Sequence record: PP582757.1
DNA from: Klebsiella phage vB_KM5a1-KLB31
Direction: 5' to 3' (one strand)
Length of the DNA: 64,000 bases
Position 1 is the first letter of the stretch; each line of letters begins with the position of its first letter. Of the stretch, positions 8,626 through 62,106 are shown in pieces. Under the pieces are notes generated by a model. The model saw nothing but the letters and a program-made list of their open reading frames with translations, did no database searches and was not told the origin of the DNA. A program made the translations under genes and the position numbers.

Positions 8626-8674
8626 TTTGTTGGTGTAGGAACATAGTATCATGGTCCTACACCAAAGTAAACAC
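8626..8674 (-). promoter_or_regulatory. T4-type early promoter E1 (GTTTAC-17-TACTAT) embedded in inverted repeat GGTGTAGG...CCTACACC
   Basis: Minus strand GTTTAC TTTGGTGTAGGACCATG ATACTAT GTTCCTACACC; near-identical copy at 13040-13083. Confidence 0.6.
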
Positions 8675-9136
8675 TTATTTTGCGAATTTCAGAACATGAG
8701 TCACAGTGCTACGTGGAACAACTGCAAACTTACCGTCATAGACGATGTTCAGCAGTTCTACGCCATCTTCAATCCACTGGTCAGAAACCCAACCGCAGAC
8801 ACGCAAGAATGGAGTTTCAACACGAACAGCTTTAGTCAACAGATCGGTCGGGTCGATAACTAGAGGACGAATCTGAGTCAGATACATATGAGCAACATCA
8901 GTATCGACTACATAACTGCCAACCTTAACTTTAGAACCATCAACACCTACAGCAGGAGCATCAGAGCCAACGATTTCAGATACATGACGAACCTGAGCAT
9001 AACCAATCACGCCGAAGTCCGTACGGACTTTATAACCATCACGAGCAGAAGAACCGATCAGGGTACCTGCTTCGCCTGCGATTTTAGAACGAGACAGAAG
9101 AGATACGTATACGCGAGAACCAATTTTCATAATCAC
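8675..9136 (-). CDS. hypothetical protein
   Basis: 153 aa ORF. Confidence 0.45.
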   Translation of the reverse strand: MIMKIGSRVYVSLLSRSKIAGEAGTLIGSSARDGYKVRTDFGVIGYAQVRHVSEIVGSDAPAVGVDGSKVKVGSYVVDTDVAHMYLTQIRPLVIDPTDLLTKAVRVETPFLRVCGWVSDQWIEDGVELLNIVYDGKFAVVPRSTVTHVLKFAK

Positions 9137-9139
9137 ACC

Positions 9140-9697
9140 TTAGAATAAAATAAAATCAACTTGAACGGCATCAGCACGTTTAAACATCACTTGGCTGTCA
9201 CCGAGTAGAACACTATTATCACACACTTCGTATATAGCAAGATAGTAGCCTTTGTTACGAAGCGAGTCAAAATCTTCGTCATCAAACCACTTGTAGAAAT
9301 GGCCTTCAGTTTCAAAGCCAAAGTAGAACTCTTTATGCCAACGTTTAGGCAGTTCTAATTGGTCTTCGACATTAAAATGTGTTAACATTGAAGCACATAA
9401 CTTTTTGTCTTCACCTGGAGGTGGACGATTGTATACGCCTTTAGAACCCTGGATATGACGGAAGTTGCCTTGTTCAATACCGTGAAGGTCCATCCAAAGA
9501 ATTGTGTCTTCAGAGTTATCACAACCTACCCACCCATATGGAGAACGTGGTTCTTTGTTCCATGATGGACGAGGTTCTTTTCGTGGGACAAAACCCGGTT
9601 GCATCCATTCGTTGACCGAATTTCTGTCAGACCAATCCAGAACATTAACATCTTCACGACGAGTAACGAATTTTCTTTCAACACGATAGATACGCAT
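9140..9697 (-). CDS. hypothetical protein
   Basis: 185 aa ORF preceded by hairpin-sequestered AGGAGG. Confidence 0.45.
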   Translation of the reverse strand: MRIYRVERKFVTRREDVNVLDWSDRNSVNEWMQPGFVPRKEPRPSWNKEPRSPYGWVGCDNSEDTILWMDLHGIEQGNFRHIQGSKGVYNRPPPGEDKKLCASMLTHFNVEDQLELPKRWHKEFYFGFETEGHFYKWFDDEDFDSLRNKGYYLAIYEVCDNSVLLGDSQVMFKRADAVQVDFILF

Positions 9698-9699
9698 AT

Positions 9700-9752
9700 G
9701 ACCTCCTGTAGATTAGGAGGTCATCATACCATGTTCTAAAGTTGTTGTAAAC
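9700..9752 (-). promoter_or_regulatory. early promoter E2 (GTTTAC-17-TATGAT) followed by leader hairpin GACCTCCT...AGGAGGTC containing the SD
   Basis: Minus strand GTTTAC AACAACTTTAGAACATG GTATGAT GACCTCCTAATCTACAGGAGGTCATATG. Confidence 0.55.
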
Positions 9753-10438
9753 TACCCACGGCCAACCGGCAGAGAACGTGGGTCAACTTCATCACCTTCA
9801 GGACAATCTTCAAGACCTAAAGCATAACGTTGAGCATATTTTAACATAAGAATGTCTTTAGCACAGTCATGAATTGAATCGTGTGCTACAAAGCCATCTA
9901 AGTCACCATTACGTAATGGGGTGGTGCTCAGACCGCGAACCATCGAGTATGCTTCAATAGCAGTACGGATGTCACGCTGGTTCCAGAACTTAACCGGTTC
10001 TAAAGCAAACGTATCAATCTCGTCTTCTGCAACGCCATTATAACGTTCGATATCACGAATCAAGTCAACCAAGATCGGGAAGTCAAATGACATACCACGA
10101 CACCAGGCCTGAGATTTCCATGCATCAACATCATTCTCACGACAGTAATCTAAGAACTGCTGAATACCTTCGAGAGTGGTCACATCTTCGTCAGTAGGAG
10201 CCAAGTTCTTTTTAGCTTCTTCTGATTGGTCTTTCCACCATTTAATAGTGCTCTTACCGAACAGACGTTGTCCTTTCTGAGGAGCCAGTTTGAACTTAAT
10301 ACGTTTGCCACGAGAAGCAATTGTATTAAAGCTTTCAACTTTAGTCGGGTCTGGGTCGAATGCAATAACAGCCAAGTCTATGACTGCTGCTTTGCTCACG
10401 TTACCAAACGTTTCAAAGTCAATAATTATATCTTTCAT
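9752..10438 (-). CDS. dexA: exonuclease A (DEDD 3-prime to 5-prime exonuclease)
   Basis: 228 aa. N-terminal IIDFETFG (exo I motif). Size and position (between dda and gene 39 side) match T4 DexA. Confidence 0.7.
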   Translation of the reverse strand: MKDIIIDFETFGNVSKAAVIDLAVIAFDPDPTKVESFNTIASRGKRIKFKLAPQKGQRLFGKSTIKWWKDQSEEAKKNLAPTDEDVTTLEGIQQFLDYCRENDVDAWKSQAWCRGMSFDFPILVDLIRDIERYNGVAEDEIDTFALEPVKFWNQRDIRTAIEAYSMVRGLSTTPLRNGDLDGFVAHDSIHDCAKDILMLKYAQRYALGLEDCPEGDEVDPRSLPVGRG

Positions 10439-12315: not shown

Positions 12316-13026
12316 TTATTTCTGAATCATAGGTAAGCCACGCTTCAGACGTACATAGTTATGAGCATTCATATACTCAAAACGTAACAGGGCTGTAGCT
12401 ATAATACCATATTCCTGTGCAGCGTTGTTTGCCGTCTTGACTTTTGATTTAGGGTCCTCTTTGGCCTTGTTCATTTCTTTTTCGAACAAATCTAAAAGAC
12501 GAGCCGCTTCTGCAGTACCAGATTCGATACGTTTCTTCATGGTCTCAATACGAATCATCATAGGCTCATCGATAACTTTAGAAGCCTCAAGATTTCTAAG
12601 TGATTCTTTACGTCCTTCAACGTTCTTAAGAACACGCAGTCGAACATTGTGGAATTCACGAGCCTTTTTAGAAGGTTGCACAGCCCCTGGCCTATCAAGC
12701 TCTTTAACACGAGAATCCGCAATTTTACCGGCAGCCATGAGTTGTTTTAGTGATAAATCACCACGACGTAAGTTGTACTTCAACTTGACAGGAACAACAT
12801 TACCTTTAATATAGCCTTTGTCATTGTCCCAACGTTCTAATGACATTTTATCATCACCAGACCCGAAGCGTTCACCTGAATAAGCGCAATGAGTTTGAAG
12901 AAGGATATTCTCCATATAAGGGCGGTCAAGATTGAAGGCCTTATTACGCGATGATGCAGATTCACGAGTATGTTGAAGACGACGCTTAGCTTTCTTTTGG
13001 AATGGCGTTAAAGGTACAGTTGACAT
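12316..13026 (-). CDS. hypothetical protein at the T4 srd position; contains a degenerate HNH-like motif
   Basis: 236 aa; HCAYSGERFG...LERWDNDKGYIKGNVVPV resembles an HNH core with the catalytic His replaced; Lys/Arg-rich C-terminal half. Confidence 0.3.
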   Translation of the reverse strand: MSTVPLTPFQKKAKRRLQHTRESASSRNKAFNLDRPYMENILLQTHCAYSGERFGSGDDKMSLERWDNDKGYIKGNVVPVKLKYNLRRGDLSLKQLMAAGKIADSRVKELDRPGAVQPSKKAREFHNVRLRVLKNVEGRKESLRNLEASKVIDEPMMIRIETMKKRIESGTAEAARLLDLFEKEMNKAKEDPKSKVKTANNAAQEYGIIATALLRFEYMNAHNYVRLKRGLPMIQK

Positions 13027-13039
13027 TTCGTTTCTCCAT

Positions 13040-13083
13040 GTTGGTGTAGGAACATAGTATCATGGCCCTACACCTTTGTAAAC
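13040..13083 (-). promoter_or_regulatory. early promoter E3 (GTTTAC-17-TACTAT) in inverted repeat GGTGTAGG...CCTACACC; paralog of E1
   Basis: gttggtgtaggaacatagtatcatggccctacacctttgtaaac. Confidence 0.6.
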
Positions 13084-13328
13084 TACATTTTGAAAAGACC
13101 TATTGGGGCGCCAAATATAGCAATCTCAAGTGCATAGTTAGGTTGCGTTGAAGAGTAATCAGTACACTTAGGCTTTTGCTCTTCTCGAGAATTTTCTTCT
13201 TCTCTTAAGGCAATTTTGGCCTCTTCCCTTAAAGCGGTATTCTTGACATGTTCTTCTTGAAGGCTTTTTGCTTCAAGGGTACGCTCTTTATCACGAGCAC
13301 TTACTGGGATATTTGTTAACCAATTCAT
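13083..13328 (-). CDS. hypothetical protein
   Basis: 81 aa ORF. Confidence 0.4.
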   Translation of the reverse strand: MNWLTNIPVSARDKERTLEAKSLQEEHVKNTALREEAKIALREEENSREEQKPKCTDYSSTQPNYALEIAIFGAPIGLFKM

Positions 13329-13379
13329 AGTCTACCTTTCTTGCTTTTTATTTCCGTAGTGTATAATGGTTCTGAGGTT

Positions 13380-14069
13380 CTACCATTCAATCAGTTCCAA
13401 GTGGATGATAGTATAAGCCATGGCATTCGGATCGGTTTGGAACTGGTCTTTAATATGAATAATGCGGTAACGCGCTTCCGAAGGAAGCATGAACTCGCAC
13501 TCACCTGTCACCATATCTAACTTATCAGCACGTTGTTCGTCAACTTTCGCTAGACCCATATACTCTTCATCCGGGGCACCCAGAACAATGTTAATGATAT
13601 CTTCTTGATAGTTATAAGCCCAAGGACAGTTACGCATACTCAGAATGATGTTTGAATCATAATGCCAGCGCCCAGCGAACTGTTTTGCAGTAGCAAAATC
13701 TGAACTGAAGCTTGTGACGCGATCTAAAGTAAACTCATCGCCTTCGGCCAAGTCTTCAAGTTTCATACGTTCGATTCTTGACACACCACGATACAGTTCT
13801 ACAGGCACTGTAGAGTTCATATGCTTTCTGACAATAGGGTTCAGACGTTCATGAATGAAATCTTCATTCTTATCATTCATACACAACCACAAAGTGCTTT
13901 GCTCTTGGTCAGTGAACTTTGCATCAACACGTTCTTGAATATAAAGACGCTCTTTTTCTTCTTCAGCTACAGAGTCAGTATGTGCTTTAAGAACAGCCTG
14001 ATACGCAGTTTCAGGGATAGTAATCGTAATAGGATGATTTGTTTCGACATTGGTAGCTTTGACAAGCAT
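13380..14069 (-). CDS. ADP-ribosyltransferase, ModA/ModB/Alt-like (R-S-E class)
   Basis: R-S-E triad motifs: ELYRGVSR (Arg), VTSFSSDF (STS-like), TGECEFMLP (E-x-E). Start chosen at Met with GGAGG SD (track ORF extends to 14081). Confidence 0.55.
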   Translation of the reverse strand: MLVKATNVETNHPITITIPETAYQAVLKAHTDSVAEEEKERLYIQERVDAKFTDQEQSTLWLCMNDKNEDFIHERLNPIVRKHMNSTVPVELYRGVSRIERMKLEDLAEGDEFTLDRVTSFSSDFATAKQFAGRWHYDSNIILSMRNCPWAYNYQEDIINIVLGAPDEEYMGLAKVDEQRADKLDMVTGECEFMLPSEARYRIIHIKDQFQTDPNAMAYTIIHLELIEW

Positions 14070-14070
14070 G

Positions 14071-14126
14071 ATGACCTCCATTGGTTGTTGAAGGTCATCA
14101 TATCATGAGGAAAGGGTCTTGTAAAC
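14071..14126 (-). promoter_or_regulatory. early promoter E4 (GTTTAC-17-TATGAT) with leader hairpin ATGACCT...AGGTCAT sequestering GGAGG
   Basis: Minus strand GTTTAC AAGACCCTTTCCTCATG ATATGAT GACCTTCAACAACCAATGGAGGTCATCATG; same GATGACCTCC module as E2. Confidence 0.55.
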
Positions 14127-14323
14127 TACTTCCAAGGAGCCCAAGGTGGAGGATCTGAATAGATGCTAGCAATCTCTTGCAGGGCGGCGACAGGGAGACT
14201 GCCACCATGTTTCTTAATGATTATATCAAGTTCATTCATGATATCAACAGGCGGCGCTTTAGGTGGTTCAGGCTCAGGGTCTGGAATGACAAGCATATCA
14301 AACAAGTCCATTACATCCACCAC
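14126..14323 (-). CDS. hypothetical protein
   Basis: 65 aa ORF. Confidence 0.35.
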   Translation of the reverse strand: MVDVMDLFDMLVIPDPEPEPPKAPPVDIMNELDIIIKKHGGSLPVAALQEIASIYSDPPPWAPWK

Positions 14324-15767: not shown

Positions 15768-15793
15768 ATAATATCACCAGTCTAGAAAGCAAA
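15768..15793 (-). promoter_or_regulatory. candidate MotA-box middle promoter (TTTGCTTTCTA, 11 nt spacer, TATTAT)
   Basis: Minus strand TTTTTTGCTTTCTAGACTGGTGATATTATGTCC immediately after terminator hairpin. Confidence 0.35.
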
Positions 15794-15816
15794 AAAGGAC
15801 TCCCGAAGGAGTCCTT
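15783..15816 (-). terminator. rho-independent terminator with UUCG tetraloop (GGACUCC-UUCG-GGAGUCC plus U6) after soc
   Basis: Plus aaaaaaggactcccgaaggagtcctt. Confidence 0.6.
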
Positions 15817-15820
15817 ATAA

Positions 15821-18203: not shown

Positions 18204-18212
18204 ATATTCTCC

Positions 18213-18243
18213 TCAAACAAAAAAGGCTCTCGATATGAGAGCC
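18213..18243 (-). terminator. hairpin GGCTCTC-gatat-GAGAGCC plus U-tract upstream of gene 61
   Basis: Plus aaaaaaggctctcgatatgagagcc. Confidence 0.45.
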
Positions 18244-18251
18244 ATTATATA

Positions 18252-19743: not shown

Positions 19744-20034
19744 TTAGATTTCCTCACAGAATGCCCACTCAGCATGATACACTGTGGCACCTTTAACATC
19801 ACTTAAGCAAACCACATTTACCGGTGCAATGACACGATAAAGACGAGGTTCTCCTCCATATGAACGAGCAGCTCTTCCAGCGTAGATTTTGGCAAGACCA
19901 ATATCTTCAGTAAAGAATACTCGACCAAGGTTTTTCTTACGACCAACTTCAGACAAAACTCCAGTTACATCAGGCGGACAAAGCATGAAATCAATGTTTG
20001 CATTACTTGATGAACCGTGGTAGTAAGTTTTCAT
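19744..20034 (-). CDS. hypothetical protein with N-terminal YHGS motif
   Basis: 96 aa; MKTYYHGSSS... See findings for the speculative H-Y-E ART interpretation. Confidence 0.4.
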   Translation of the reverse strand: MKTYYHGSSSNANIDFMLCPPDVTGVLSEVGRKKNLGRVFFTEDIGLAKIYAGRAARSYGGEPRLYRVIAPVNVVCLSDVKGATVYHAEWAFCEEI

Positions 20035-20057
20035 AAGTCCTCCAGTTGGTATGAGTC

Positions 20058-20110
20058 TATAATAACATGTCCTTAGAGGATGTAAACCCCGAAAGGAGGC
20101 CGAAGCCTCC
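20058..20110 (-). promoter_or_regulatory. PeSL-type element E5: UUCG terminator hairpin (GGAGGC-UUCG-GCCUCC) then early promoter GTTTAC-17-TATTAT
   Basis: Minus strand GAGGAGGCTTCGGCCTCCTTTCGGG GTTTAC ATCCTCTAAGGACATGT TATTAT AG. Confidence 0.6.
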
Positions 20111-20112
20111 TC

Positions 20113-30378: not shown

Positions 30379-30429
30379 TTTATTTTCCTCAATGTTTCAA
30401 GTAAACTACCACATCCTTGTGGCAGCAAA

Positions 30430-33132: not shown

Positions 33133-33187
33133 GGTTTTCCCTTAGACGAGTAATTGTCTTTTGTTTGATGAACTTATTATACTCCAA

Positions 33188-39449: not shown

Positions 39450-39466
39450 TTGTTCACCTCTAAGGA

Positions 39467-39496: not shown

Positions 39497-39497
39497 A

Positions 39498-39511
39498 GGG
39501 ACCGAAGTCCC
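39498..39511 (-). terminator. UUCG-tetraloop terminator (GGGAC-UUCG-GUCCC plus UUUUCUGC) abutting the stop of a 45-aa ORF
   Basis: Plus gggaccgaagtccc. Confidence 0.5.
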
Positions 39512-40951: not shown

Positions 40952-40998
40952 TTCATAGGTCCATTATATCATAGGTTGAGGGACCCGAATTTAAAGCA

Positions 40999-42276: not shown

Positions 42277-42605
42277 GATGCAGCCTTAACAATCTTGAGG
42301 TCACGGAAACCTTTCTTACGCTGGTTCTTCATCTTACGAATGGTCTTATCAGAAATCTGATTCTTGTCTGGGTCATAGGTGCCCACACCAAATGCAGGAG
42401 TACTGAACTCTGACAGAATATAACCGACAACCAATTCACGAATACGGGCCTTACCGATCTTCTGATCGTTTTCTTTCATGGTACCGTGCAGGTCTTGTTC
42501 CCACTTGTCGAGGATTTCCGGAGTAACATAGCCACCAGATTTCATGATGCTAACAACTTTGTCATAAGCGAAAGAATTCAGAACGTTTTTAATAGCTTGA
42601 GACAT
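42273..42605 (-). CDS. hypothetical basic protein
   Basis: 110 aa. Confidence 0.4.
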   Translation of the reverse strand: MSQAIKNVLNSFAYDKVVSIMKSGGYVTPEILDKWEQDLHGTMKENDQKIGKARIRELVVGYILSEFSTPAFGVGTYDPDKNQISDKTIRKMKNQRKKGFRDLKIVKAAS

Positions 42606-42643
42606 AGCAATTTCCTCAGTAAATTAATATTTTGTTATCCAAG

Positions 42644-42678
42644 GAGGACATTATACCCTGTCCTCACGGGTTTAGAAC
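42644..42678 (-). promoter_or_regulatory. early-promoter variant E13 (GTTCTA-17-TATAAT) with -10 box in the loop of inverted repeat GAGGACA...TGTCCTC
   Basis: Minus strand GTTCTA AACCCGTGAGGACAGGG TATAAT GTCCTCC. Confidence 0.4.
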
Positions 42679-42932: not shown

Positions 42933-43186
42933 TAGATGAGCCCCAGTACAAGTACAGAAACATTATCTGCTTCATAATCGTAGATATCAGAGATTAAAGC
43001 ATGAACAGCATTATTTACAAGAGAAGTCTTTTGTTTAGCCATCAGACAATTCACTTCGGTCATCATTCCGCGAGCACGAAAGATAATTTCAGAACCACGA
43101 ACTTCAATGGTCATGTTAGTCGGGTAAGAACTAGTTGATACACGTACTTCGGCAATAATGTGACGTTGAACTTCGAGAGTAATCAT
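42932..43186 (-). CDS. hypothetical protein (start at MITLEV after the GGAGG in promoter element E6)
   Basis: Track ORF begins at a GTG inside the promoter; ATG with GGAGG SD at 43186 is preferred. Confidence 0.4.
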   Translation of the reverse strand: MITLEVQRHIIAEVRVSTSSYPTNMTIEVRGSEIIFRARGMMTEVNCLMAKQKTSLVNNAVHALISDIYDYEADNVSVLVLGLI

Positions 43187-43195
43187 GTGAACCTC

Positions 43196-43244
43196 CATTT
43201 GTTTGTGTAGGAACATACTATCACGAACAAATGGAGTTGTAAAC
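43196..43244 (-). promoter_or_regulatory. early promoter E6 (GTTTAC-17-TAGTAT) inside inverted repeat CCATTTGTT...AACAAATGG whose 3-prime arm runs into the SD
   Basis: Minus strand GTTTAC AACTCCATTTGTTCGTG ATAGTAT GTTCCTACACAAACAAATGGAGGTTCACATG. Confidence 0.55.
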
Positions 43245-44186: not shown

Positions 44187-44660
44187 TCATTTTAACGATT
44201 TCCTCAGTTGTTTTTTAAACGATGCTACCATCTTAGGTTTAGTATCGCTTTCGATATAAGTGAAGCCATGTTGTTTGAACATCGCTATCATATCATCTTT
44301 ATTACCACGAGCGAACTCTTTTGCTTTATCAGTCACAAAACTCGGGTGGATATTATTTTCACTATAATCATCTTTCAGATAGGTCAGCAAACTCTCAAGC
44401 CATTCGAGGTAGTCGATGTTTTGACCTTTTAAACCAGAGCGGTTGAACTTATGCTTCATTTGGCCTTCTGCGGCATTGCACAGATTACATAGCAACCCAC
44501 GAACCTTACCAGCTTTTGGCCCGCTTAATTCATGGTCGTGGTCAAGGTGATTCGCTTGAACATCGGTAGAAAGCTCTCGCTTACAGAGCAGACATTTACC
44601 ATGCTGTGCATCATAAAATTTTTGTTTTTGTTCTTTGTATAGTTTACCAGTCAATAACAT
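44187..44660 (-). CDS. 49: endonuclease VII (Holliday junction resolvase), gene 49
   Basis: 157 aa; MLLTGKLYKE.QKQKFYDAQ.GKCL.C.REL, HLDHDHEL.GPKAGKVRGLLCNLCNAAEG near-identical to recalled T4 gp49. Confidence 0.9.
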   Translation of the reverse strand: MLLTGKLYKEQKQKFYDAQHGKCLLCKRELSTDVQANHLDHDHELSGPKAGKVRGLLCNLCNAAEGQMKHKFNRSGLKGQNIDYLEWLESLLTYLKDDYSENNIHPSFVTDKAKEFARGNKDDMIAMFKQHGFTYIESDTKPKMVASFKKQLRKSLK

Positions 44661-44693
44661 ACGTTCACCTCAATATAAGATGAACGTATTTAA

Positions 44694-45122
44694 TCAGAAT
44701 GCTCGATCAGAGAATTCAAGACGTTTTTCGAGTTGACGAATATAGTCTGCAGCGCACTGCATCAAGTTGGCTTCATATCCGTTTACACGGGTTTTAGCTT
44801 CTTCCAGACGAACAGTAATTTCCATACCGTCGAATTGATTCATCGGAGCTTCAGGGAAGAAATCAGAAGCAAGCTCTTCAATTTCTTTAAGTTGGTCCAT
44901 TGTATCAGCACAATAGAAGCACCAGAACCAAGAGTCGCGACTGTTTACATGAAGATAAGGGCCGTTCTTGATTTTAACAGAAGTGATGCCATCTTCATAG
45001 TCACGATCACGTTCGGCAACAGTAACAACCTTGAACACAACACCTTTCTTTAATTCAGGGAACTGCATCAACAGTTCTTCGTCATCAGCGATGATTTCAA
45101 AAACTTTATCGACTAATTTCAT
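44694..45122 (-). CDS. hypothetical protein
   Basis: 142 aa. Confidence 0.45.
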   Translation of the reverse strand: MKLVDKVFEIIADDEELLMQFPELKKGVVFKVVTVAERDRDYEDGITSVKIKNGPYLHVNSRDSWFWCFYCADTMDQLKEIEELASDFFPEAPMNQFDGMEITVRLEEAKTRVNGYEANLMQCAADYIRQLEKRLEFSDRAF

Positions 45123-45192: not shown

Positions 45193-45381
45193 TTATAGCG
45201 ATTGCAAGTTCCATGTTTTATCCTCCAGGTCAAGTAATTCATTCACTGTAGGTTCATCATAACATGGAACTTCCTCTGTGTAAACAGGTTCTTCAGGCTC
45301 GACGGTTTCCCATCGAGCTGCGTACCATGGCTTAATGCTCACGCCAATAGCTTGAGACTTCGAAATCAGGCGCATCATCAT
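45193..45381 (-). CDS. hypothetical protein
   Basis: 62 aa. Confidence 0.3.
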   Translation of the reverse strand: MMMRLISKSQAIGVSIKPWYAARWETVEPEEPVYTEEVPCYDEPTVNELLDLEDKTWNLQSL

Positions 45382-48444: not shown

Positions 48445-48504
48445 AATTTTTTCCTCTATCTCTCTTGGCTGATAAATAATCCCGTTTTGAAAGGACCATG
48501 ATTC

Positions 48505-48532
48505 ATTATACCATAGCCCTTCCTAAAGCATT
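48505..48532 (-). promoter_or_regulatory. MotA-box middle promoter (ATGCTTTA, 13 nt spacer, TATAAT)
   Basis: Minus strand TAATGCTTTAGGAAGGGCTATGGTATAATGAATC; best match to the T4 middle-promoter consensus in the window. Confidence 0.55.
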
Positions 48533-48537
48533 AAAGG

Positions 48538-48747: not shown

Positions 48748-49517
48748 TAAATCACCACTGATGAAGGACGTTTAAAGAATGAATGAGTAATATCATTCAC
48801 TGCTTGACTGAACGTCGCTGTGAACTCGATATCGCCACGGAAATCATTTGGTACTGCCTTGGGCAGAGAACCATAAACCGTAGCACCATTTTCCAGTCGA
48901 ACGGTCATCTTAGCAACAGGTCCCCAGATATCCATCCATTCTTTGACTGAAACTACTTTACCTTTTACTGTCTGTTTGCCCACAGGAGCTTCGCCTTTGG
49001 ACTTATTCAGCTCAGCATAATAATTACTATACCAAGCTTCACTGTACGCCTGAATCGCTTCCAGGATGGTCTTATGAGCACGTACTTTACACATACCTGC
49101 TTTAATTCCACCTTCCAGGTCCCAGATTTTATAAGGAGTCTGGATTTCCATGTTAGAGATTGCTTTAATCTCTTTGTACATATCATACGTCAAACGCAGT
49201 TTCCACCAGCCATGATCGCCTGTGTATTCTGGTTTGTCAAAGCTATCCAACTCAGTGACATATGGAAGGTAACTACCAGCGTGATACGCTTCCACTTCAC
49301 CTAATTCATTTTCCCACAAGTAACCATCAAATGGCGCATGTGGACGGTCATCAACACCCCAGGTAGGAGCTACAACTTTATCGAATGATTCACGTCCGTA
49401 ACGGGACTTGCTCCATCCTGAGTTCAACTCCTCGGCGCGTTTTTCAACTTTCGCTCGGTGCTCACGGTGGGCTTTACGATTTTCTTCAAAAAGGTCGTTG
49501 ATGATTTTAGTTAACAT
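48747..49517 (-). CDS. hypothetical protein
   Basis: 256 aa; downstream of early promoter E7. Confidence 0.5.
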   Translation of the reverse strand: MLTKIINDLFEENRKAHREHRAKVEKRAEELNSGWSKSRYGRESFDKVVAPTWGVDDRPHAPFDGYLWENELGEVEAYHAGSYLPYVTELDSFDKPEYTGDHGWWKLRLTYDMYKEIKAISNMEIQTPYKIWDLEGGIKAGMCKVRAHKTILEAIQAYSEAWYSNYYAELNKSKGEAPVGKQTVKGKVVSVKEWMDIWGPVAKMTVRLENGATVYGSLPKAVPNDFRGDIEFTATFSQAVNDITHSFFKRPSSVVI

Positions 49518-49532
49518 TTTGTATCTCCATGT

Positions 49533-49574
49533 TGGTGTAGGAGCACTATAACACGCCTCTACACCATTGTAAAC
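49533..49574 (-). promoter_or_regulatory. early promoter E7 (GTTTAC-17-TATAGT) in inverted repeat GGTGTAG...CTACACC
   Basis: Minus strand GTTTAC AATGGTGTAGAGGCGTG TTATAGT GCTCCTACACC. Confidence 0.55.
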
Positions 49575-50972: not shown

Positions 50973-51134
50973 TCAGATTTTGTGAACAGTGTTATCACGT
51001 TTGTAGATGTCAATCAACATCTGGCTTGGCTCTTCATAAGTCCAGGTGTCATAGGCTTTTACCGCAGAAATTGCAATCATAGCTATTGCAAGAATCTTAA
51101 CCAGTTCATCAAACACGCTTTTTAAAAATTTCAT
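50973..51134 (-). CDS. small ORF (53 aa) with hydrophobic segment
   Basis: MKFLKSVFDELVKILAIAMIAISAVKAYD...; directly downstream of early promoter E8. Confidence 0.35.
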   Translation of the reverse strand: MKFLKSVFDELVKILAIAMIAISAVKAYDTWTYEEPSQMLIDIYKRDNTVHKI

Positions 51135-51150
51135 TTTGTTTCTCCGTTTT

Positions 51151-51189
51151 GGTAGGAAGACTATATCATGCCTTCCTACCGTTGTAAAC
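51151..51189 (-). promoter_or_regulatory. early promoter E8 (GTTTAC-17-TATAGT) in inverted repeat GGTAGGAAG...CTTCCTACC
   Basis: Minus strand GTTTAC AACGGTAGGAAGGCATG ATATAGT CTTCCTACC. Confidence 0.55.
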
Positions 51190-51190: not shown

Positions 51191-52171
51191 TTATTTCAGA
51201 AGAGTTACTTCAGCAATCTCTTCCCAACCATTTGCATCGGTAGCGACGAAGTCAGCCAGGTAAAGCGCTGTACGTAAGGAAACGTTACGGAGTTTAGTAA
51301 CATTAGCCTTCATCCAGTTGAGTGCCATGGACGTCTGAGCGTCGCTTAAACCACGTTTCTGCATCATGTTGGTGTTCAAGATTACATCTTCAACGCGAAT
51401 CATGATTTCTTCGTTTGAGTGAACACCCAGGTCCAGATAAACTGAACGTGATACAAGAGCATGAAGGTGTGGAGCAAGTTTAGAACCACGTTCTAATTCT
51501 TTATCGATATCAACGTTAGTGATGAAAACGATAGTACCTTCAAACTCGAATTCTTTATCGATGTTTTTGTCATCGAGGTAAGAAGAAGCAGTGCTCCAGC
51601 AAACTTTACGAGTTTCGCCTGTATCGAGTGCTGCTTTCAGGAGGTTAAGCATATCCATATCAGAGAATACGTCAACATCATCAATAAGCAGAACGCTGTT
51701 TGCATCACGGTTGTTCCAAAGCTGCTCATAAAGACCGATACCTGAGATTTTACCGTTGATGCTTTTATAAACGATTTCACCATATTCATGAGAAGTTTTC
51801 AGGGCTTTATCCAAGCTGTAAGTTTTACCAATACCTGCGGCACCAGAGATGATTAAAGAACGGATGTTGCCAGAGATAATACCTTTGGTCATCATGTTCA
51901 TAACTGTGAAGCGTTTGTTGATACGCTGTTTCATTTCTTCGACTGACTCAACTGTAGCCAGTAGAGAAACCTCCATACCTTCCATTTCGATATCAGATTT
52001 GAACACCCATACACCACGTTCTTTGCCATCAACTTGGATGAACACTTTACCATCACCAAGGTGTGCTTCATGAGCAGGAACAACATCTGGGAACCAAGTC
52101 TTGGTTGCAACGAATTTACCAGAGATGTCGTTACCGCGGAAAGTACCTTTGTTGATTTGAACGTTGAACAT
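51191..52171 (-). CDS. AAA/P-loop ATPase-like protein
   Basis: 326 aa; Walker A GAAGIGKTYSLDKAL, Walker B-like VLLIDDVD. Confidence 0.5.
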   Translation of the reverse strand: MFNVQINKGTFRGNDISGKFVATKTWFPDVVPAHEAHLGDGKVFIQVDGKERGVWVFKSDIEMEGMEVSLLATVESVEEMKQRINKRFTVMNMMTKGIISGNIRSLIISGAAGIGKTYSLDKALKTSHEYGEIVYKSINGKISGIGLYEQLWNNRDANSVLLIDDVDVFSDMDMLNLLKAALDTGETRKVCWSTASSYLDDKNIDKEFEFEGTIVFITNVDIDKELERGSKLAPHLHALVSRSVYLDLGVHSNEEIMIRVEDVILNTNMMQKRGLSDAQTSMALNWMKANVTKLRNVSLRTALYLADFVATDANGWEEIAEVTLLK

Positions 52172-52211
52172 TTTATTCTCCAGTGGTTTTCAGTATTTGT
52201 TTCGATGCAGC

Positions 52212-52241
52212 TATAATAACATGTTGAAAGCAGATGTAAAC
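52212..52241 (-). promoter_or_regulatory. early promoter E9 (GTTTAC-17-TATTAT)
   Basis: Minus strand GTTTAC ATCTGCTTTCAACATGT TATTAT AGC; same ACATGTTATTATAG core as E5. Confidence 0.5.
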
Positions 52242-52243: not shown

Positions 52244-52666
52244 TTATTTGCAAAGATTCCACTGAATCAGAGTATATTTTTCATTGTAGCCATCTTTAAT
52301 CATCATTGCAGCAAACTCTTCAAAGTTGTTAGAAGCATTGAAGAACGCTACAGCTTTCTTAGTAGGCTTTGCAACACGCTTTTCAGTTTTTGCAACTTTA
52401 ACTTCTTCAACAACTGGCGCTGCTTCAACGATATCGCAAGAACCATCTGAGTAGCGAGCCCATACTTCGTTACCAACTTTAAACATTGCTGCTTTACGAC
52501 CATTTGGCATTTCAACCATTTTGCCTTTCAGCTTAGTCACTTCAGTGATAACCTGATCGCCATATTCTTCATAACGATCTTTAGAAGTAACACCATCAGT
52601 AGAAGCAATCATTGGGAAGTTGAAGTGGTAATAAGCAAAGTTACGAATCGCGTAGTAAGTTTTCAT
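52244..52666 (-). CDS. hypothetical protein
   Basis: 140 aa. Confidence 0.45.
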   Translation of the reverse strand: MKTYYAIRNFAYYHFNFPMIASTDGVTSKDRYEEYGDQVITEVTKLKGKMVEMPNGRKAAMFKVGNEVWARYSDGSCDIVEAAPVVEEVKVAKTEKRVAKPTKKAVAFFNASNNFEEFAAMMIKDGYNEKYTLIQWNLCK

Positions 52667-52699
52667 TTTATATCTCCGTTTAATTTGTTTCAGTTCGTT

Positions 52700-52743
52700 T
52701 AGCTGATAGGTCTATAGTAACCTGCCTTAAAGCATATGTAAAC
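52700..52743 (-). promoter_or_regulatory. early promoter E14 (GTTTAC-17-TACTAT), back-to-back with a plus-strand late promoter
   Basis: Minus strand GTTTAC ATATGCTTTAAGGCAGG TTACTAT. Confidence 0.45.
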
Positions 52744-52784: not shown

Positions 52785-53558
52785 ATGTTAATTGCTGCAG
52801 ACTCTATAGAAAGCCTGAACACTAAGATTCAAGAGAAGATAGCTGATGGGATGTATTTGTTTGGAGCACCAACTATTCTACCATCTACACAGTTTGATTC
52901 TGATAGATATTTTCAGTTGATGTCTGACACAAGAGATACTGTACCAGGCCCGCCAGGTGCTAAAGGGGATAAAGGAGATACTGGAGCCGATTCTACTGTT
53001 CCGGGTCCTCCAGGTGCAAAAGGAGATACAGGCGCTGCAGGACTTTCTGCTTATCAAACATGGCTTAATCTCGGGCATACTGGTACTGAACAAGATTTCT
53101 TAAATTCCATAGCAGGAACAAGACAAAAATCTGAAGCGTTTTGGACCGGGTTGTCTATAGCATTGACTGCAGGAACTACTTACAATCTGATAAACATTTT
53201 GAAAGGAACACCTACTACTGCAGGTCAATTAGCTCCATTCTTTAGAATTGCTGATAATAAATTATGGCCATTCAACTCTGACACCACAATGACATTTAAG
53301 CTTAACGTAACAGGTGTTTTTACCGGTGTGAGTCAAGCCCGTAGTCTGACAATTAACTTTGTTGGGACCAACGGTAACACTTTAGTTCAAAACCGTCCTG
53401 AAAATGCTATAGACACTATGTCATTTGCCACATTCTTTAGTGTAGACAAGAATGGACAAATGGCAACTAATGGTTCTGTTATCGATATAATCGCCAATGG
53501 AGGTGTGTTCACCATTAACAGTGTTCTTTTAGTAGCAGAACAAGTAGTGAAGTCTTAA
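52785..53558 (+). CDS. plus-strand late gene: collagen-repeat protein (two VPGPPGAKGD(K)GDTGA repeats), putative virion or fibre-associated protein
   Basis: 257 aa; AAGGAG SD; Gly-X-Y triplets TVPGPPGAKGDKGDTGADSTVPGPPGAKGDTGAAG; beta-rich C-terminal domain; perfect late promoter; own terminator. Confidence 0.65.
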   Translation: MLIAADSIESLNTKIQEKIADGMYLFGAPTILPSTQFDSDRYFQLMSDTRDTVPGPPGAKGDKGDTGADSTVPGPPGAKGDTGAAGLSAYQTWLNLGHTGTEQDFLNSIAGTRQKSEAFWTGLSIALTAGTTYNLINILKGTPTTAGQLAPFFRIADNKLWPFNSDTTMTFKLNVTGVFTGVSQARSLTINFVGTNGNTLVQNRPENAIDTMSFATFFSVDKNGQMATNGSVIDIIANGGVFTINSVLLVAEQVVKS

Positions 53559-53567
53559 TGCCCAAAA

Positions 53568-53583
53568 GGGACCGTAAGGTCCC
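53568..53583. terminator. bidirectional hairpin terminator (GGGACC-GUAA-GGUCCC) shared by the convergent plus late gene and a minus-strand membrane-protein gene
   Basis: Plus aaaagggaccgtaaggtcccttta followed by ttattattt; both stop codons abut it. Confidence 0.55.
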
Positions 53584-53587
53584 TTTA

Positions 53588-56108: not shown

Positions 56109-56383
56109 TTTAACTCACCTTTAGCCTTTGCTTCGTGGATTGCAGCCAGAACACTTGCATAGTTCTCCGGGTCGCTTTTACGTACGATAGACACGCTATA
56201 AGGCATACTATCATGGTCTTTGATGAAACGTTCTAACTGACATGTCAGAAGAACTTCAGGGTGAAATAGAGTGTACATCAGGTTGCCTGTTGCGGCCCTG
56301 TATTGACAAATCTCTACGGATTGTTTACCTTCCCACTGACGTGTCAGGACTAAATCGCCTACTTCAAGTTTTGGAAAACCCAT
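56105..56383 (-). CDS. hypothetical protein
   Basis: 92 aa; downstream of early promoter E10. Confidence 0.4.
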   Translation of the reverse strand: MGFPKLEVGDLVLTRQWEGKQSVEICQYRAATGNLMYTLFHPEVLLTCQLERFIKDHDSMPYSVSIVRKSDPENYASVLAAIHEAKAKGELK

Positions 56384-56402
56384 TTCAATTTCCTCTCGTT
56401 TG

Positions 56403-56443
56403 TCTGTAGGAGTATAATAACACGTCCTACAGACGTTGTAAAC
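56403..56443 (-). promoter_or_regulatory. early promoter E10 (GTTTAC-17-TATTAT) in inverted repeat GTCTGTAGGA...TCCTACAGAC
   Basis: Minus strand GTTTAC AACGTCTGTAGGACGTG TTATTAT ACTCCTACAGAC. Confidence 0.55.
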
Positions 56444-57300: not shown

Positions 57301-57569
57301 TATGCAATCCAGTCTTCAATAGCTTTAACCAGACGAAGTGCTTCACCGCTACGCAGCCAATGATACTCTTCATCGATAAGAAGCAGTTTAGTACCGAGTG
57401 AAGCAGAAGTTTCCAGCCAGAAGCTGTAAGGAGCATTCACTGAATCATTATCAATGCAAATACCTATTTCGCCGATAGCAGGAATGTACTTCAGGTTAAA
57501 AGTGACTTCGTCACCATCTTTATGAACGAGTTTGATTTCGCCAAAGCTACGAGACATTTGAATACTCAT
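57300..57569 (-). CDS. hypothetical protein
   Basis: 89 aa; downstream of early promoter E11. Confidence 0.4.
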   Translation of the reverse strand: MSIQMSRSFGEIKLVHKDGDEVTFNLKYIPAIGEIGICIDNDSVNAPYSFWLETSASLGTKLLLIDEEYHWLRSGEALRLVKAIEDWIA

Positions 57570-57580
57570 TTCTTTACTCC

Positions 57581-57629
57581 AGTTCGTTAGTGTAGGAACA
57601 TCTTAACACGAACAAAACTGGATGTAAAC
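57581..57629 (-). promoter_or_regulatory. early promoter E11 (GTTTAC-17-TAAGAT) with imperfect inverted repeat CCAGTT..GTTCGT...ACGAACTGG
   Basis: Minus strand GTTTAC ATCCAGTTTTGTTCGTG TTAAGAT GTTCCTACACTAACGAACTGGAG. Confidence 0.5.
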
Positions 57630-57635
57630 ACTAAA

Positions 57636-57666
57636 ACGAAAAAAGGGTCCCACCGAAGTAGGACCC
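57636..57666 (-). terminator. rho-independent terminator (GGGUCC-loop-GGACCC plus U6) immediately upstream of E11; PeSL-like arrangement
   Basis: Plus aaaaaagggtcccaccgaagtaggaccc. Confidence 0.55.
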
Positions 57667-57671
57667 TGTAA

Positions 57672-60214: not shown

Positions 60215-60684
60215 TAATTACCGTCCCAATCAACAATAATGATATTCAGATTAGGAGTGAATATATCAATTAGAATTGATACCTTTTCCCAATCACCACC
60301 AGCAATACCACAACCGATACGAGGCATATAAATTGTCGGAGGAACAATCATTCTGTTACCCCATTGATTTAATTCTATCATACAGTTAACTAAAGCACCA
60401 TAGTCAAGATTTGGCCCGGGTTCGTATTGGGTATAAAGATTGAAGCAATATACTTCATGGTCATCTTGCCCATGTAACTTAACAGCACGAGTAAATGTAC
60501 CAAGTTTTTCTTTATCGCCTAATTCTGACAAACCTTTATCGGCGTTAAGAACTACAGGATAAGCGGCAGCCAATTGTCCTGCTACGCCTGCGCCCATTGT
60601 ATGGAAGCAATTACAGCCATGGGCTACGTTGTAACCTGACTTAAAAAGTGATACGATATTGCCAGTGATGTATTTGGTTATCAT
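60214..60684 (-). CDS. macro-domain protein (ADP-ribose binding / ADP-ribosyl hydrolase family)
   Basis: 156 aa; ITGNIVSL...NVAHGCNCFHTMGAGVAGQLAAAYP fits the macro-domain NAAN...GGGV..AI block. Confidence 0.5.
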   Translation of the reverse strand: MITKYITGNIVSLFKSGYNVAHGCNCFHTMGAGVAGQLAAAYPVVLNADKGLSELGDKEKLGTFTRAVKLHGQDDHEVYCFNLYTQYEPGPNLDYGALVNCMIELNQWGNRMIVPPTIYMPRIGCGIAGGDWEKVSILIDIFTPNLNIIIVDWDGN

Positions 60685-61028
60685 TTGGAATTCAATCCAC
60701 GGTTATAAGAATCGACTAGTCTGTCAACCATTGATTCACAGACCGATTTATATTTTTCATCTGAAGGAATACATTCAGTAGTTAAAAGGCGGTCTTCGTA
60801 ACGTTTAGATAAGGTCCCTTCTCTAAAACGAGAACGGGAATCCATTTGACCATCTTTATACGCGACTATGACCTGGCTACTGAATTCGCTTATGCATTGT
60901 GTATTCTTAGGTGCGCAATAATCTTTAGCAGTTCTGTTCGCGTAGTCAATAATTTCTGACATATCGGTTGATGCTGAAACTCCCAAACTGAGTGTTAACC
61001 CCAAAGCTAAAGTTATCTGCTTTAACAT
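60681..61028 (-). CDS. secreted hypothetical protein
   Basis: 115 aa; signal peptide MLKQITLALGLTLSLGVSA. Confidence 0.4.
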   Translation of the reverse strand: MLKQITLALGLTLSLGVSASTDMSEIIDYANRTAKDYCAPKNTQCISEFSSQVIVAYKDGQMDSRSRFREGTLSKRYEDRLLTTECIPSDEKYKSVCESMVDRLVDSYNRGLNSK

Positions 61029-61580
61029 TTATTCCACCGTTTGATGTAACATTTTGCGTGATTTTAGATAATTAGCTTTTTCAAGAACTTGTGATGCATA
61101 TTTGTTACCTGCTTTCACATTCCATCCTGCGTTGTATGAAGAAATAGCCTTTCTCATATCACCTTTGTGCACGTTTAACCAGTAAGATAATTCGATATAA
61201 GCCCAGGAAGCGCTATTAGAGCGTTTCTTGACCATTCTGATTATCTCTTTGTCTGACATGTTCCATCCAACCTGGTTGACCCTGTTACGTAAGGTTGGCA
61301 GGTAATTTTGGAACATACCGTATGCATGATGTTTCTGTTTTTGCATACCTGTATTTAAGCCAGCTGATGATTCTTGCCAAACCAAGGCAGCCATGATATA
61401 TCCCAAACCATTATTGTCATAACGGCTTTCGTGCTCTTTGAACTTACCCGACTTCTGGTATTGTTCACCAAAAGCATACGCATAATGTAAATTATCGAGT
61501 TGTTCATTACTGAAAGTAGGCTCTACGCTATGGGCAGACATACTTGCTGTCAATAGTAAGGCAGCTAATACTTTTTTCAT
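61029..61580 (-). CDS. secreted lytic transglycosylase (SLT domain)
   Basis: 183 aa; signal peptide; catalytic ES (WQESSAG), GMFQ, SYNAGW motifs. Confidence 0.55.
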   Translation of the reverse strand: MKKVLAALLLTASMSAHSVEPTFSNEQLDNLHYAYAFGEQYQKSGKFKEHESRYDNNGLGYIMAALVWQESSAGLNTGMQKQKHHAYGMFQNYLPTLRNRVNQVGWNMSDKEIIRMVKKRSNSASWAYIELSYWLNVHKGDMRKAISSYNAGWNVKAGNKYASQVLEKANYLKSRKMLHQTVE

Positions 61581-61590
61581 GAATTTTCCT

Positions 61591-62049
61591 TTAAATTAAA
61601 TCGATTACCTTTGTGCTGATTTTTCCTTCAAGACGACGATTGTTAATAAAAGCCATACGGCAGCACAGAGATGGCAGGCGTCCAGGAGTTGGACGATCTA
61701 CTGTCATTCCTAGCCATAAATTACGGTCTGTAATTTCCAGACGTAATGGACGATACTCTACACCTTCCACTTTGTCATCTTCAACATCAGGCAAGGCTGG
61801 GAGTTTGAGGAACTCTACAACGGTAGTGACATGGTTGTGGAGCAATTTGAACAGAGTAAAGACGTATTGCTCATCGATTTCACGTTGGATAGCACGGTCC
61901 AAGAGGTGTGGGCTGTACTTTACAAAAAAGCGTTCAACGCCATTTGCAGCACAAGATGTAGCAATTGTTTTGTTGATTTCTGCGAACTCGGTCTCAAAGA
62001 CACGACGCAGTTTGTTACGACGAATGTAAACGCTAGAATCAATAGACAT
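61591..62049 (-). CDS. regB: RegB sequence-specific endoribonuclease
   Basis: 152 aa; FIRRNKLRR.FE.EF, HLLDRAIQREIDE.YVF, GVEYRP.RLEITD.NLWLG, CRMA.IN.RRL match recalled T4 RegB. Confidence 0.85.
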   Translation of the reverse strand: MSIDSSVYIRRNKLRRVFETEFAEINKTIATSCAANGVERFFVKYSPHLLDRAIQREIDEQYVFTLFKLLHNHVTTVVEFLKLPALPDVEDDKVEGVEYRPLRLEITDRNLWLGMTVDRPTPGRLPSLCCRMAFINNRRLEGKISTKVIDLI

Positions 62050-62052
62050 TTT

Positions 62053-62106
62053 TATCTCCTTTTAGTGTGTAGAGTGATAGTAACACAACTAAAAGGAGAT
62101 GTAAAC
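62053..62106 (-). promoter_or_regulatory. early promoter E12 for regB (GTTTAC-17-TACTAT) in a perfect 13-bp inverted repeat ATCTCCTTTTAGT...ACTAAAAGGAGAT whose 3-prime arm is the SD
   Basis: Minus strand GTTTAC ATCTCCTTTTAGTTGTG TTACTAT CACTCTACACACTAAAAGGAGATAAAAATG. Confidence 0.6.

Follow-up and report, generated by a model that had tools for sequence, protein, structure and literature searches.

A promoter-early stem-loop (PeSL), as published, consists of an early promoter of the sigma70 type and a stem-loop, the latter in many cases overlapping the -10 element; it lies between the stop codon of the upstream gene and the Shine-Dalgarno (SD) sequence and ATG of the downstream gene, and is found at indel breakpoints (PMC2839356, PMC4122927). 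Also known, from phage T4, are hairpins that sequester the ribosome-binding site and have a promoter inside them, at e, soc, 49, 39, 25, 26, I-TevI-III, and segB (PMC3014915, PMC2988022); the genes known to be regulated by a hairpin of this sort were, according to a 2010 review, all late genes (PMC2988022). Here, we describe a family of 14 early-promoter cassettes in the first ~64 kb of Klebsiella phage vB_KM5a1-KLB31, a T4-like phage (sequence record PP582757.1; this stretch of 64,000 nucleotides is referred to as the window, and positions are counted from its first letter unless another record is named). The cassettes, numbered E1 to E14 by position, are near certain to be of the PeSL type. 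In a subset of them, the stem is predicted to bury the SD of the next gene on RNA that reads through from upstream and to leave it accessible on RNA started at the cassette's own promoter.

Promoter cassettes and their stems

The sequence-only reading of the window that preceded this analysis had located all 14 elements on the minus strand, and each site does read as a sigma70-type promoter-like cassette directly 5' of an SD and an ATG. Its promoter model stood only in part: the elements are sigma70-type promoters, but the literal GTTTAC-N17-TAnnAT matches just two of the sites. The corrected geometry is TTTACn-17-TAnnnT, with TGn in most cassettes, the 17-nucleotide spacer being counted from the TTTACn hexamer and not from GTTTAC in most elements. 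In the 64-kb window, TTTAC-N15-TGnTAnnnT has 11 matches, all on the minus strand, versus 0.27 expected (a count reached by none of 100 shuffles), and a generic sigma70 scan recovers 12 of the 14 cassettes, mostly with TGn. Exceptions are E5 and E10, with a spacer of 16 nucleotides, E11, which lacks TGn, and E6, the -35 of which is a degenerate TTCTAA.

The cassettes wholly fill intergenic gaps of 44 to 102 nucleotides, from the stop codon of one gene to the ATG of the next. When an additional promoter-like site at position 45284 is included, the upstream stop codon lies 0 to 3 nucleotides from the -35 or overlaps it at 12 of 15 sites, the junction taking the form TAGTTTAC or TAAGTGTTTAC. This additional site (45212 to 45285, minus strand), an exact TTTACA-17-TATGAT with TG, was not counted as a cassette, since it has no stem (z = +1.1 in the folding comparison given below) and apparently lies inside the coding sequence of 49.1 in the PEi20 annotation. 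A start-site or leader motif, CCTACAC(C)AAC, is found in E1, E3, E7, E8, and E13, with variants in E9, E12, and E14; its core, CCTACAC, occurs 10 times versus 4.2 expected and is kept even where it has no complementary partner (E7 and E13). The near-identity of E1 and E3 that had been noted before was confirmed, while the sequence said to be shared by E5 and E9, ACATGTTATTATAG, is in fact common to E5 and E10. Taken with the published description, these features bear out the earlier label "PeSL-like".

Each cassette was folded from its -35 to the ATG and compared with 300 dinucleotide shuffles. Nine of the 14 (E1, E2, E3, E4, E7, E9, E12, E13, and E14) fold much better than their shuffles (z <= -3.4, P <= 0.003), E8 follows with z = -2.3, the stems of E5 and E6 are weak (z of about -1.2 to -1.3), and E10 and E11 have no significant stem; the inverted repeats previously proposed around the promoters are thus significant in nine cassettes and missing from two. 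When the pre-start and post-(-10) segments of the cassettes in the window were paired in all combinations, cognate pairs averaged -13.8 kcal/mol and noncognate pairs -9.4 kcal/mol (permutation P = 1e-5), so that each cassette has a complementarity of its own, for which shared motifs do not account.

In about 10 cassettes, a segment 5' of the predicted start is complementary to a segment at or after it, where the predicted +1 is taken to be the seventh nucleotide after the -10. Given this start, all 5' arms fall between the -35 and about +2, and because the 5' arm thus lies upstream of the predicted +1, the hairpin would be possible only on RNA begun further upstream. The earlier proposal that a cassette's own transcript lacks the 5' arm is therefore upheld by both geometry and folding, with the start site as predicted.

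Three classes could be distinguished. In class A (E1, E3, E8, E9, E12, and, weakly, E6), an arm of 10 to 15 nucleotides in the spacer pairs with an arm that starts 2 to 4 nucleotides after the -10; this 3' arm is the conserved (T)CCTACAC(C)AAC, which covers the predicted start, and the SD follows 3 to 10 nucleotides further on. In class B (E7, E13, E14, and, weakly, E5), the 5' arm directly follows the -35 and the 3' arm is the SD, with the -10 and the start site in a loop of ~30 nucleotides. In class C (E2 and E4), the 5' arm begins at the -10 and extends as far as about +1, and the 3' arm covers the SD and, in E4, also the AUG.

Folding of read-through and own-promoter leaders gave a strong contrast in SD accessibility for five cassettes, a weak one for E7, and none for most of class A. 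In the five SD-hiding cassettes, the probability that the SD is unpaired is 0.00 to 0.02 on read-through RNA and 0.48 to 0.61 on the cassette's own transcript (read-through/own: E2, 0.01/0.57; E4, 0.00/0.61; E5, 0.00/0.58; E13, 0.00/0.48; E14, 0.00/0.49), while a value below 0.05 is seen for only 5.8% of the 69 other genes in the window with a recognizable SD. For E7, the values are 0.16 on read-through RNA and 0.22 on its own transcript. The SD is largely open (~0.6 to 0.7) on both RNA forms of E1, E3, E8, and E9 and less so for E12 (0.12 on read-through RNA versus 0.39 on its own transcript). The general claim that the SD is folded away on read-through RNA consequently narrows, in silico, to E2, E4, E5, E13, and E14, with E7 joining them by structure only; it does not extend to E1, E3, E8, E9, and E12, the palindromes that stand out most, or to E10 and E11. 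Likewise, of the cassettes formerly listed as having the SD for a 3' arm (E2, E4, E6, and E12), E2 and E4 were rightly included, E6 and E12 were not, and E5, E13, and E14 (and E7, by structure) have to be added.

Conservation of the stems and competing explanations

The window, which comes from a phage of the genus Kanagawavirus, runs colinear with the first ~64 kb of two Straboviridae of that genus, Edwardsiella phages PEi20 and PEi26, at ~95 to 97% identity; the next relatives, at ~82%, are Kosakonia phage 305, Enterobacter phages Q7622 and CIP9, and others. Orthologous cassettes were taken from PEi20, PEi26, Kosakonia 305, Q7622, and CIP9. Among them, E9 shows a compensatory double change from G-C to A-T in Kosakonia 305, the E3 orthologues alternate between GTAGG/CCTAC and GTAGA/TCTAC, and those of E5 go from TCCTC/GGAGGA to ATCTCC/GGAGAT, with an inner stem in the relatives that goes from GGAC/GTCT to GGGC/GCCT. 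Pairing in E8 is retained in relatives via G.U changes, the E2 stem is retained in Kosakonia 305 and CIP9 with a changed loop, and the class A stem of E3 is retained even where Srd is only 40% identical. The 13-nucleotide arms of E14 are invariant in six genomes, with variation in the loop and in the flanking genes (81% identity). Further afield, the three classes recur, with arms of different sequence, in Serratia phage X20, which belongs to another genus, and T4 itself has a 14-bp perfect class A palindrome around the -10 of ipII as well as class B SD-pairing stems in the denV and regB early promoters (T4 record positions 65798, 65412, and 62796).

The strongest comparative evidence comes from regB, the gene downstream of E14. 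From 42 regB loci, including loci from IMG/VR, plus T4, we obtained 14 distinct arm types, in most of which the segment right after the -35 pairs with the SD. The arms themselves are lineage specific (ATCTCCTTTTAGT/ACTAAAAGGAGAT in the window and, elsewhere, ATCCTCATTTG/CAAATGAGGAT, TTCTCCTCTAGTTG/CAACTAGAGGAGAA, and TTTCTCCTCTTTATG/CATAAAGAGGAGAAA); those of T4, TTTTCCTCTTGACTG/CAGTTAAGAGGAGAA, pair at 15 of 15 positions. Columnwise covariation on a MAFFT alignment of the regB cassettes was abandoned, as the register of the stem shifts between lineages and alignment columns do not hold pairs, and for that reason cognate and noncognate duplexes were compared by swapping arms between lineages instead. 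Cognate pairs averaged -14.05 kcal/mol and noncognate pairs -8.94 kcal/mol (P = 1e-5), and the cognate partner was the best of all 14 in eight of the 14 lineages. Four lineages depart from class B: one has a class C stem that still hides the AUG, one a class A stem, and two a class A stem inside a short outer SD stem. Since the promoter spacer is not otherwise constrained in sequence, we regard this covariation over about a dozen lineages as good evidence that SD pairing is the selected feature at regB.

For class A, the question is rather on which strand the structure is selected. Over all classes, a comparison of whole-cassette folding of the sense and antisense strands gave no signal (Wilcoxon P = 0.14), a result confounded by CA-rich leaders and by an inner CATG/TATG stem; the comparison was retained for class A only, with an added count over the outer stems. 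There, the sense strand outfolds the antisense strand in 22 of 23 unique sequences, a bias owed in part to the inner CATG/TATG stem, which the promoter consensus imposes and which contributes about one G.U to each hairpin when whole cassettes are folded. The outer stems, counted over orthologues, contain 234 Watson-Crick pairs, 22 G.U pairs, 2 A.C oppositions, and 6 other mismatches, figures that depend in part on a scoring rule favoring G.U at stem ends. An asymmetry of G.U over A.C is not expected of a cruciform or of a protein site in duplex DNA, and the structure selected in class A is most likely sense-strand RNA.

Together, these observations lead us to an account in which PeSL-type cassettes gate the SD in a subset of cases and insulate gene boundaries in class A; its functional part is a prediction, and we give the whole rather better than even chances. 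RNA from an upstream promoter would form the hairpin, and the cassette's own transcript, which begins downstream of the 5' arm, would not. In classes B and C (E2, E4, E5, E13, E14, and, by structure, E7), read-through RNA would then be untranslatable for the next gene and resistant to RegB at its GGAG, and only RNA from the cassette's own early promoter would expose the SD, making it both translatable and cleavable by RegB. RegB is known to be inhibited by RNA structure and to cleave its own SD (PMC3014915), and own-promoter RNA as the only form that is translatable and open to RegB would for these classes be the most economical reading. Synthesis of RegB, ModB, and similar proteins would in this way be tied to the short period of early-promoter activity, a notion that the regB covariation supports. 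We hold SD gating in the class B/C subset to be slightly to somewhat more probable than not. In class A (E1, E3, E8, E9, and E12), where one arm lies on each side of the -10, the start-site and leader motif CCTACAC(C)AAC is taken up in the stem with the SD left open. Here, the hairpin may mark or insulate the boundary between genes on read-through RNA, whether through attenuation, through pausing, or because the single-stranded leader beside the SD is removed; such insulation is the most likely role for class A and, at the same time, the least certain step of the proposal.

Several points weigh against this account, besides the two reservations attached to the class A strand counts. First, one mechanism does not span the family: class A stems are off the SD, E10 and E11 are stemless, and the stems of E5 and E6 are weak. 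Second, even the own transcript of E7 offers little access to the SD (0.22), the SD stem of E13 is not conserved in Kosakonia 305, whose 5' arm lacks the complementarity, and, among the regB lineages, one (L040) has no arm reaching the SD or AUG and another (L047) has an outer SD stem of only 5 bp. Third, a ribosome terminating 5 to 10 nucleotides upstream could open the stems, which would turn occlusion into coupling. Finally, the start sites on which the argument depends are assumed positions, read from the sequence alone.

Of the competing explanations, the one that fares best is that proposed by the authors who described PeSLs, namely, that the stems are terminators or attenuators of upstream transcription, in which case the overlap with the SD would be incidental. 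The stems are indeed stable (-16 to -21 kcal/mol) and located at gene boundaries, and the stem-loop of RB49 PeSL211/210 was similar to the rrnB T1 terminator in how far it reduced lacZ expression (PMC2839356); the published attenuation, however, rests on that single RB49 stem in a lacZ fusion (PMC2839356). No embedded stem in the window is followed by a T tract, loops reach ~30 nucleotides, and a terminator scan calls only the separate hairpin upstream of E13 (57644 to 57667) and none of the embedded stems. Moreover, the 3' arm at regB follows the SD in the majority of lineages, something for which a plain terminator would have no use, and T4-type phages depend on read-through for the expression of downstream genes (PMC2988021). 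We therefore think it unlikely that termination is what these stems are for, although class A may have such a function.

A second possibility is that the hairpins mainly control RNA decay, either by shielding GGAG on long transcripts from RegB or, once the SD has been cleaved, by remaining on the upstream cistron as a stem that protects its 3' end. The SD of most cassettes is GGAG, the stems of E3, E8, and E9 end 4 to 5 nucleotides before it, and RegB, which cleaves its own SD, is stopped by secondary structure (PMC3014915). However, E1 and E12 have GAGAGG instead of GGAG, and a role in decay would in any case be compatible with translational occlusion; as the main function, we consider it rather improbable.

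Third, the inverted repeats might act as DNA, as a cruciform or palindrome recognized by a recombinase, a nuclease, or a dimeric regulator of early promoters, with the RNA hairpin as a by-product. Four homology breakpoints coincide with cassettes (see below), the class A half-site GGTGTAG/CTACACC keeps its sequence even at an Srd identity of only 40%, CCTACAC is over-represented, and the mechanism by which T4 early promoters are shut off is still unresolved (PMC3014915). The breakpoints, however, are at the edge of the -35 and not in the stems, CCTACAC stands without a partner in E7 and E13, the arms vary freely among cassettes and lineages and yet stay complementary, and the 22 to 2 ratio of G.U to A.C in class A is foreign to duplex DNA or a cruciform, so that we judge a DNA-level function very improbable. 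That the complementarity arises merely by chance, from promoter and SD consensus sequences crowded into intergenic regions of very small size, is barely credible, in view of shuffle z scores down to -7.6, two swap tests with P = 1e-5, and compensatory changes in orthologues, even if the inner CATG/TATG stem is indeed a consequence of the TGn and TAnnAT consensus and E5, E6, E10, and E11 are not significant.

Individual cassettes and probable exchange between them

Nearly all genes of the window are carried by the minus strand, as are all the cassettes. On the basis of the PEi20 annotation, the genes that follow cassettes are cef, motB.2, srd, modB, 55.2, nrdC.10, regB, and several small hypothetical open reading frames (ORFs), and the replication-gene core, from 20.1 to 42.6 kb, has no cassettes.

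Among the class A cassettes, E1 (8608 to 8672) precedes cef. Its -35 is at 8666 to 8671 and its -10 at 8643 to 8648, the latter flanked by the arms TTGGTGTAGGACCATG (8650 to 8665) and TATGTTCCTACACCAA (8630 to 8645); the predicted +1 is near 8636, and the SD (8618 to 8622) is free, with an unpaired probability of 0.68 on read-through RNA and 0.78 on the cassette's own transcript (folding energy, dG, of -20.0; z = -4.6). E3 (13024 to 13083) lies upstream of srd, with GGTGTAGGGCCATG and TATGTTCCTACACC flanking the -10 (z = -4.2). Distant srd loci mostly have no early-type cassette upstream, and little additional class A covariation was gained from them. In E8 (49515 to 49574), the -10 is flanked by TGGTGTAGAGGCG and TGCTCCTACACCA (z = -2.3), in E9 (51132 to 51189) by GGTAGGAAGGC and GTCTTCCTACC (dG = -19.1, z = -5.9), and in E12 (56381 to 56443) by GTCTGTAGGA and TCCTACAGAC, the SD GAGAGG being outside the arms (dG = -19.8, z = -5.2). 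The E12 cassette is missing altogether in Kosakonia 305. E6 (42603 to 42678), upstream of 55.2, is a degraded cassette with a -35 of TTCTAA and a -10 of TATAAT (z = -1.2), in which a stem GAGGACA/TGTCCTC flanks the -10 and does not involve the SD; the corresponding -35 position reads TTTACA in Kosakonia 305, Q7622, and CIP9. In PEi20, the E6 orthologue (record position ~43650) retains the stem GAGGAC-CTAGT-GTCCTC, has lost the -10, and follows a different upstream gene, in the manner of a "half PeSL" remnant.

The class B cassettes comprise, first, E14 (62047 to 62106), upstream of regB, which has the most significant stem (dG = -21.0, z = -7.6); its 5' arm ATCTCCTTTTAGT (within 62083 to 62100) pairs with the 3' arm ACTAAAAGGAGAT (within 62054 to 62070), which is the SD, and the -10 and start site are in the loop. 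In E7 (43184 to 43244; dG = -19.5, z = -4.3), the 5' arm CTCCATTTGTT comes right after the -35, the 3' arm AACAAATGGAG includes the SD, and the loop holds the -10 and CCTACAC. E13 (57567 to 57667; z = -3.8), with the 5' arm TCCAGTTTTGTTCG and the 3' arm CGAACTGGAG, which is the SD, stands behind a UUCG hairpin resembling an intrinsic terminator (57644 to 57667, followed by a T tract). E5 (20032 to 20112), after gene 41, has its 16-nucleotide-spacer promoter behind another UUCG hairpin, GAGGAGGCTTCGGCCTCC (20095 to 20112), and a weak class B stem of TCCTCTA (20074 to 20080) with TGGAGGA (20038 to 20044), which is the SD (z = -1.3). Both of the hairpins that the sequence-only reading had called terminators upstream of E5 and E13 are thus present; the one at E5, however, is followed by TTTCGGG and does not qualify as an intrinsic terminator. 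Similar intergenic hairpins occur elsewhere on the minus strand of the window (53516 to 53587, 39450 to 39511, 35102 to 35158, 33133 to 33208, 15770 to 15820, 4863 to 4934, and 18204 to 18251), six of them with UUCG or UACG tetraloops and that at 18204 to 18251 with UAUCG; most are followed by T tracts, several directly precede a middle-promoter-like TGCTT, and they resemble the CUUCGG hairpins of T4.

In class C, E2 (9695 to 9752), upstream of motB.2, has the 5' arm ATGACCTCCT (9715 to 9724), from the -10 to about +1, and the 3' arm AGGAGGTCAT (9698 to 9707), which is the SD (z = -3.4). E4 (14067 to 14126), upstream of modB, has the 5' arm TATGATGACCTTCA (14089 to 14102), which covers the -10 and discriminator, and the 3' arm TGGAGGTCATCATG (14067 to 14080), which covers the SD and AUG (dG = -19.3, z = -4.2). 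The best generic sigma70 match of this region (14220 to 14247, minus strand; TTGATA-16-TATAAT with TG, 11/12) lies inside the ORF upstream of E4. The two remaining cassettes consist of a promoter only: E10 (52169 to 52241), upstream of nrdC.10, has a 16-nucleotide spacer, carries ACATGTTATTATAG, and shows no significant stem (z = +1.7), with a UUCG terminator directly upstream in relatives where the window has coding sequence, and E11 (52664 to 52743) has neither TGn nor a significant stem (z = -0.5).

Comparison of the window with its relatives revealed gains, losses, and breakpoints at cassettes. Homology breaks at 13083 (E3), relative to both PEi20 and PEi26, and at 62106 (E14), relative to PEi26, in each case exactly at the G of GTTTAC, 1 nucleotide from the -35. 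Further breakpoints are at 42650, inside E6 (-27; relative to PEi20), and at 56474, 32 nucleotides from E12 (relative to PEi26), giving four coincidences with cassettes among ~30 gap ends versus ~0.5 expected. The break at E3 borders a segment of 252 bp upstream of this cassette (13083 to 13335, minus strand) that is absent from PEi20 and PEi26 and contains an ORF of 81 amino acids (13083 to 13328; MNWLT...), the stop codon of which, TAG, abuts the TTTAC of E3. The product is 38% identical (E value, 5e-13) to Q7622 gp023, which is located at the modB cassette in that phage, and both ORFs end in TAG|TTTAC. Additionally, the core of E3 in the window is identical to the E1 core of PEi26 and unlike the E3 of PEi20 and PEi26, which suggests exchange between cassettes. 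The duplication and shuffling proposed earlier for these elements are supported by the four breakpoints, by the E1-type core in E3, and by the occurrence of a small ORF at different cassettes in different phages. The cassettes mark sites of gene swapping in this phage group, and, whichever use is made of the hairpin, their conserved sequence probably serves as a recombination joint for exchanging neighboring ORFs; the breakpoints reveal the joint, and the mechanism is our inference.

Comparison with known systems

The closest relatives of these cassettes are the PeSLs of RB49 and phi1 (Arbiol et al. 2010, PMC2839356), which likewise have a stem in the spacer or around the -10, occur in many copies on one strand, and cluster among small noncore ORFs at breakpoints of indels and replacements; class A corresponds to the RB49 subclass with GGGGG/CCCCC arms over the -10. 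The RB49 elements differ in having TTGACA, short G/C-tract stems, and an upstream AT-rich tract, whereas those described here have TTTACa and arms of 10 to 15 nucleotides of mixed sequence, and no AT-rich tract was found upstream of their -35 (mean AT content of 25 nucleotides, 0.58, versus a window mean of 0.596). The 19 RB49 cassettes that we scanned have such short G/C-tract stems either in the spacer or about the -10, and the SD was hidden in none (lowest unpaired probability on read-through RNA, 0.19). The main RB49 subclass, with the stem in the spacer, has a counterpart in X20, where CCACAAGGATGTGG stands between the -35 and -10 of two early promoters (record positions 16320 and 27211); in the window, the same hairpin, CCACAAGGATGTGG, is found just upstream of a GTTTAC (30379 to 30429, minus strand).

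The PeSLs of T4/PST and nt-1/KVP40 (Comeau et al. 2014, PMC4122927) share the consensus TTTACW-N17-TAYWAT with the present family and include half or degraded cassettes, comparable to E6. The stems of PST and T4 are drawn just upstream of the promoter in that work, an arrangement that only the UUCG hairpins of E5 and E13 fit here, and start-straddling, SD-hiding stems are not described there, yet T4 has start-straddling stems at regB, denV, and ipII. Middle-promoter versions (PmSLs) are also described (PMC4122927) and may be compared with two places on the minus strand of the window. At 48445 to 48537, a MotA-box-like AATGCTTTA and TATAAT lie inside a 14-bp PmSL-like stem, GGAAGGGCUAUGGU...AUCAUGGUCCUUUC (z = -3.0). 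Upstream of gene 55 (40934 to 40998), a MotA-box-like TGCTT and TATAAT are flanked by GGGTCC/GGACC; although the region as a whole shows no significant fold (z = 0.08), pairing of the gene 55 SD is predicted in the upstream context (unpaired probability, 0.01).

In their logic, the SD-hiding cassettes resemble the hairpins of T4 e, soc, and 49, in which a helix on the long transcript hides the SD and AUG and a promoter inside the hairpin gives a transcript without the 5' arm. There, however, the promoter is a late one (TATAAATA) and the genes are late genes, whereas here sigma70 early promoters precede regB, modB, motB.2, and small early ORFs, and the gate would close, not open, as infection progresses. 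Two classical-looking SD-sequestering hairpins of the former kind are present on the minus strand of the window, at gene 49 (~44660 to 44735) and hoc (~6464 to 6540), with late-promoter-like sequences, ATTAAATA and CATAAATA, respectively, at the 5' arm; the unpaired probability of the SD is 0.01 to 0.02 in both, which matches the known paradigm of T4 gene 49. Lambdoid morons, finally, are similar in that a gene brings along a promoter and, in some cases, a terminator of its own, but they lack both a conserved flanking cassette acting as a recombination joint and a hairpin built around the promoter. No Rfam family matched at its gathering score anywhere in the window.

It is possible, if somewhat short of an even chance, that T4-like phages, including T4, gate the translation of early genes (regB, denV, modB, motB.2, and small ORFs) by placing the gene's own promoter in an SD-hiding hairpin, so that the far longer-lived read-through RNA is silent for the gated gene. 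If so, this would be an early-gene mirror of the late e/soc/49 mechanism and would put a posttranscriptional stop to potentially harmful early proteins once early promoters are shut off; confirmation would help to explain the temporal confinement of early protein synthesis and would provide natural parts of compact size in which a promoter and a translational insulator are combined. The SD-occluding early-promoter hairpin is undescribed in the PeSL papers and in the 2010 T4 reviews, and older T4 literature may mention the regB and denV hairpins. PeSLs have so far been discussed mainly as terminators and recombination joints, and what the comparison adds is that in many T4-like phages the stem is placed to exist, as predicted, only on read-through RNA and that, at a subset of early genes, it covers the ribosome-binding site, a form that appears to be a variant within the known PeSL kind, conserved as far as T4.

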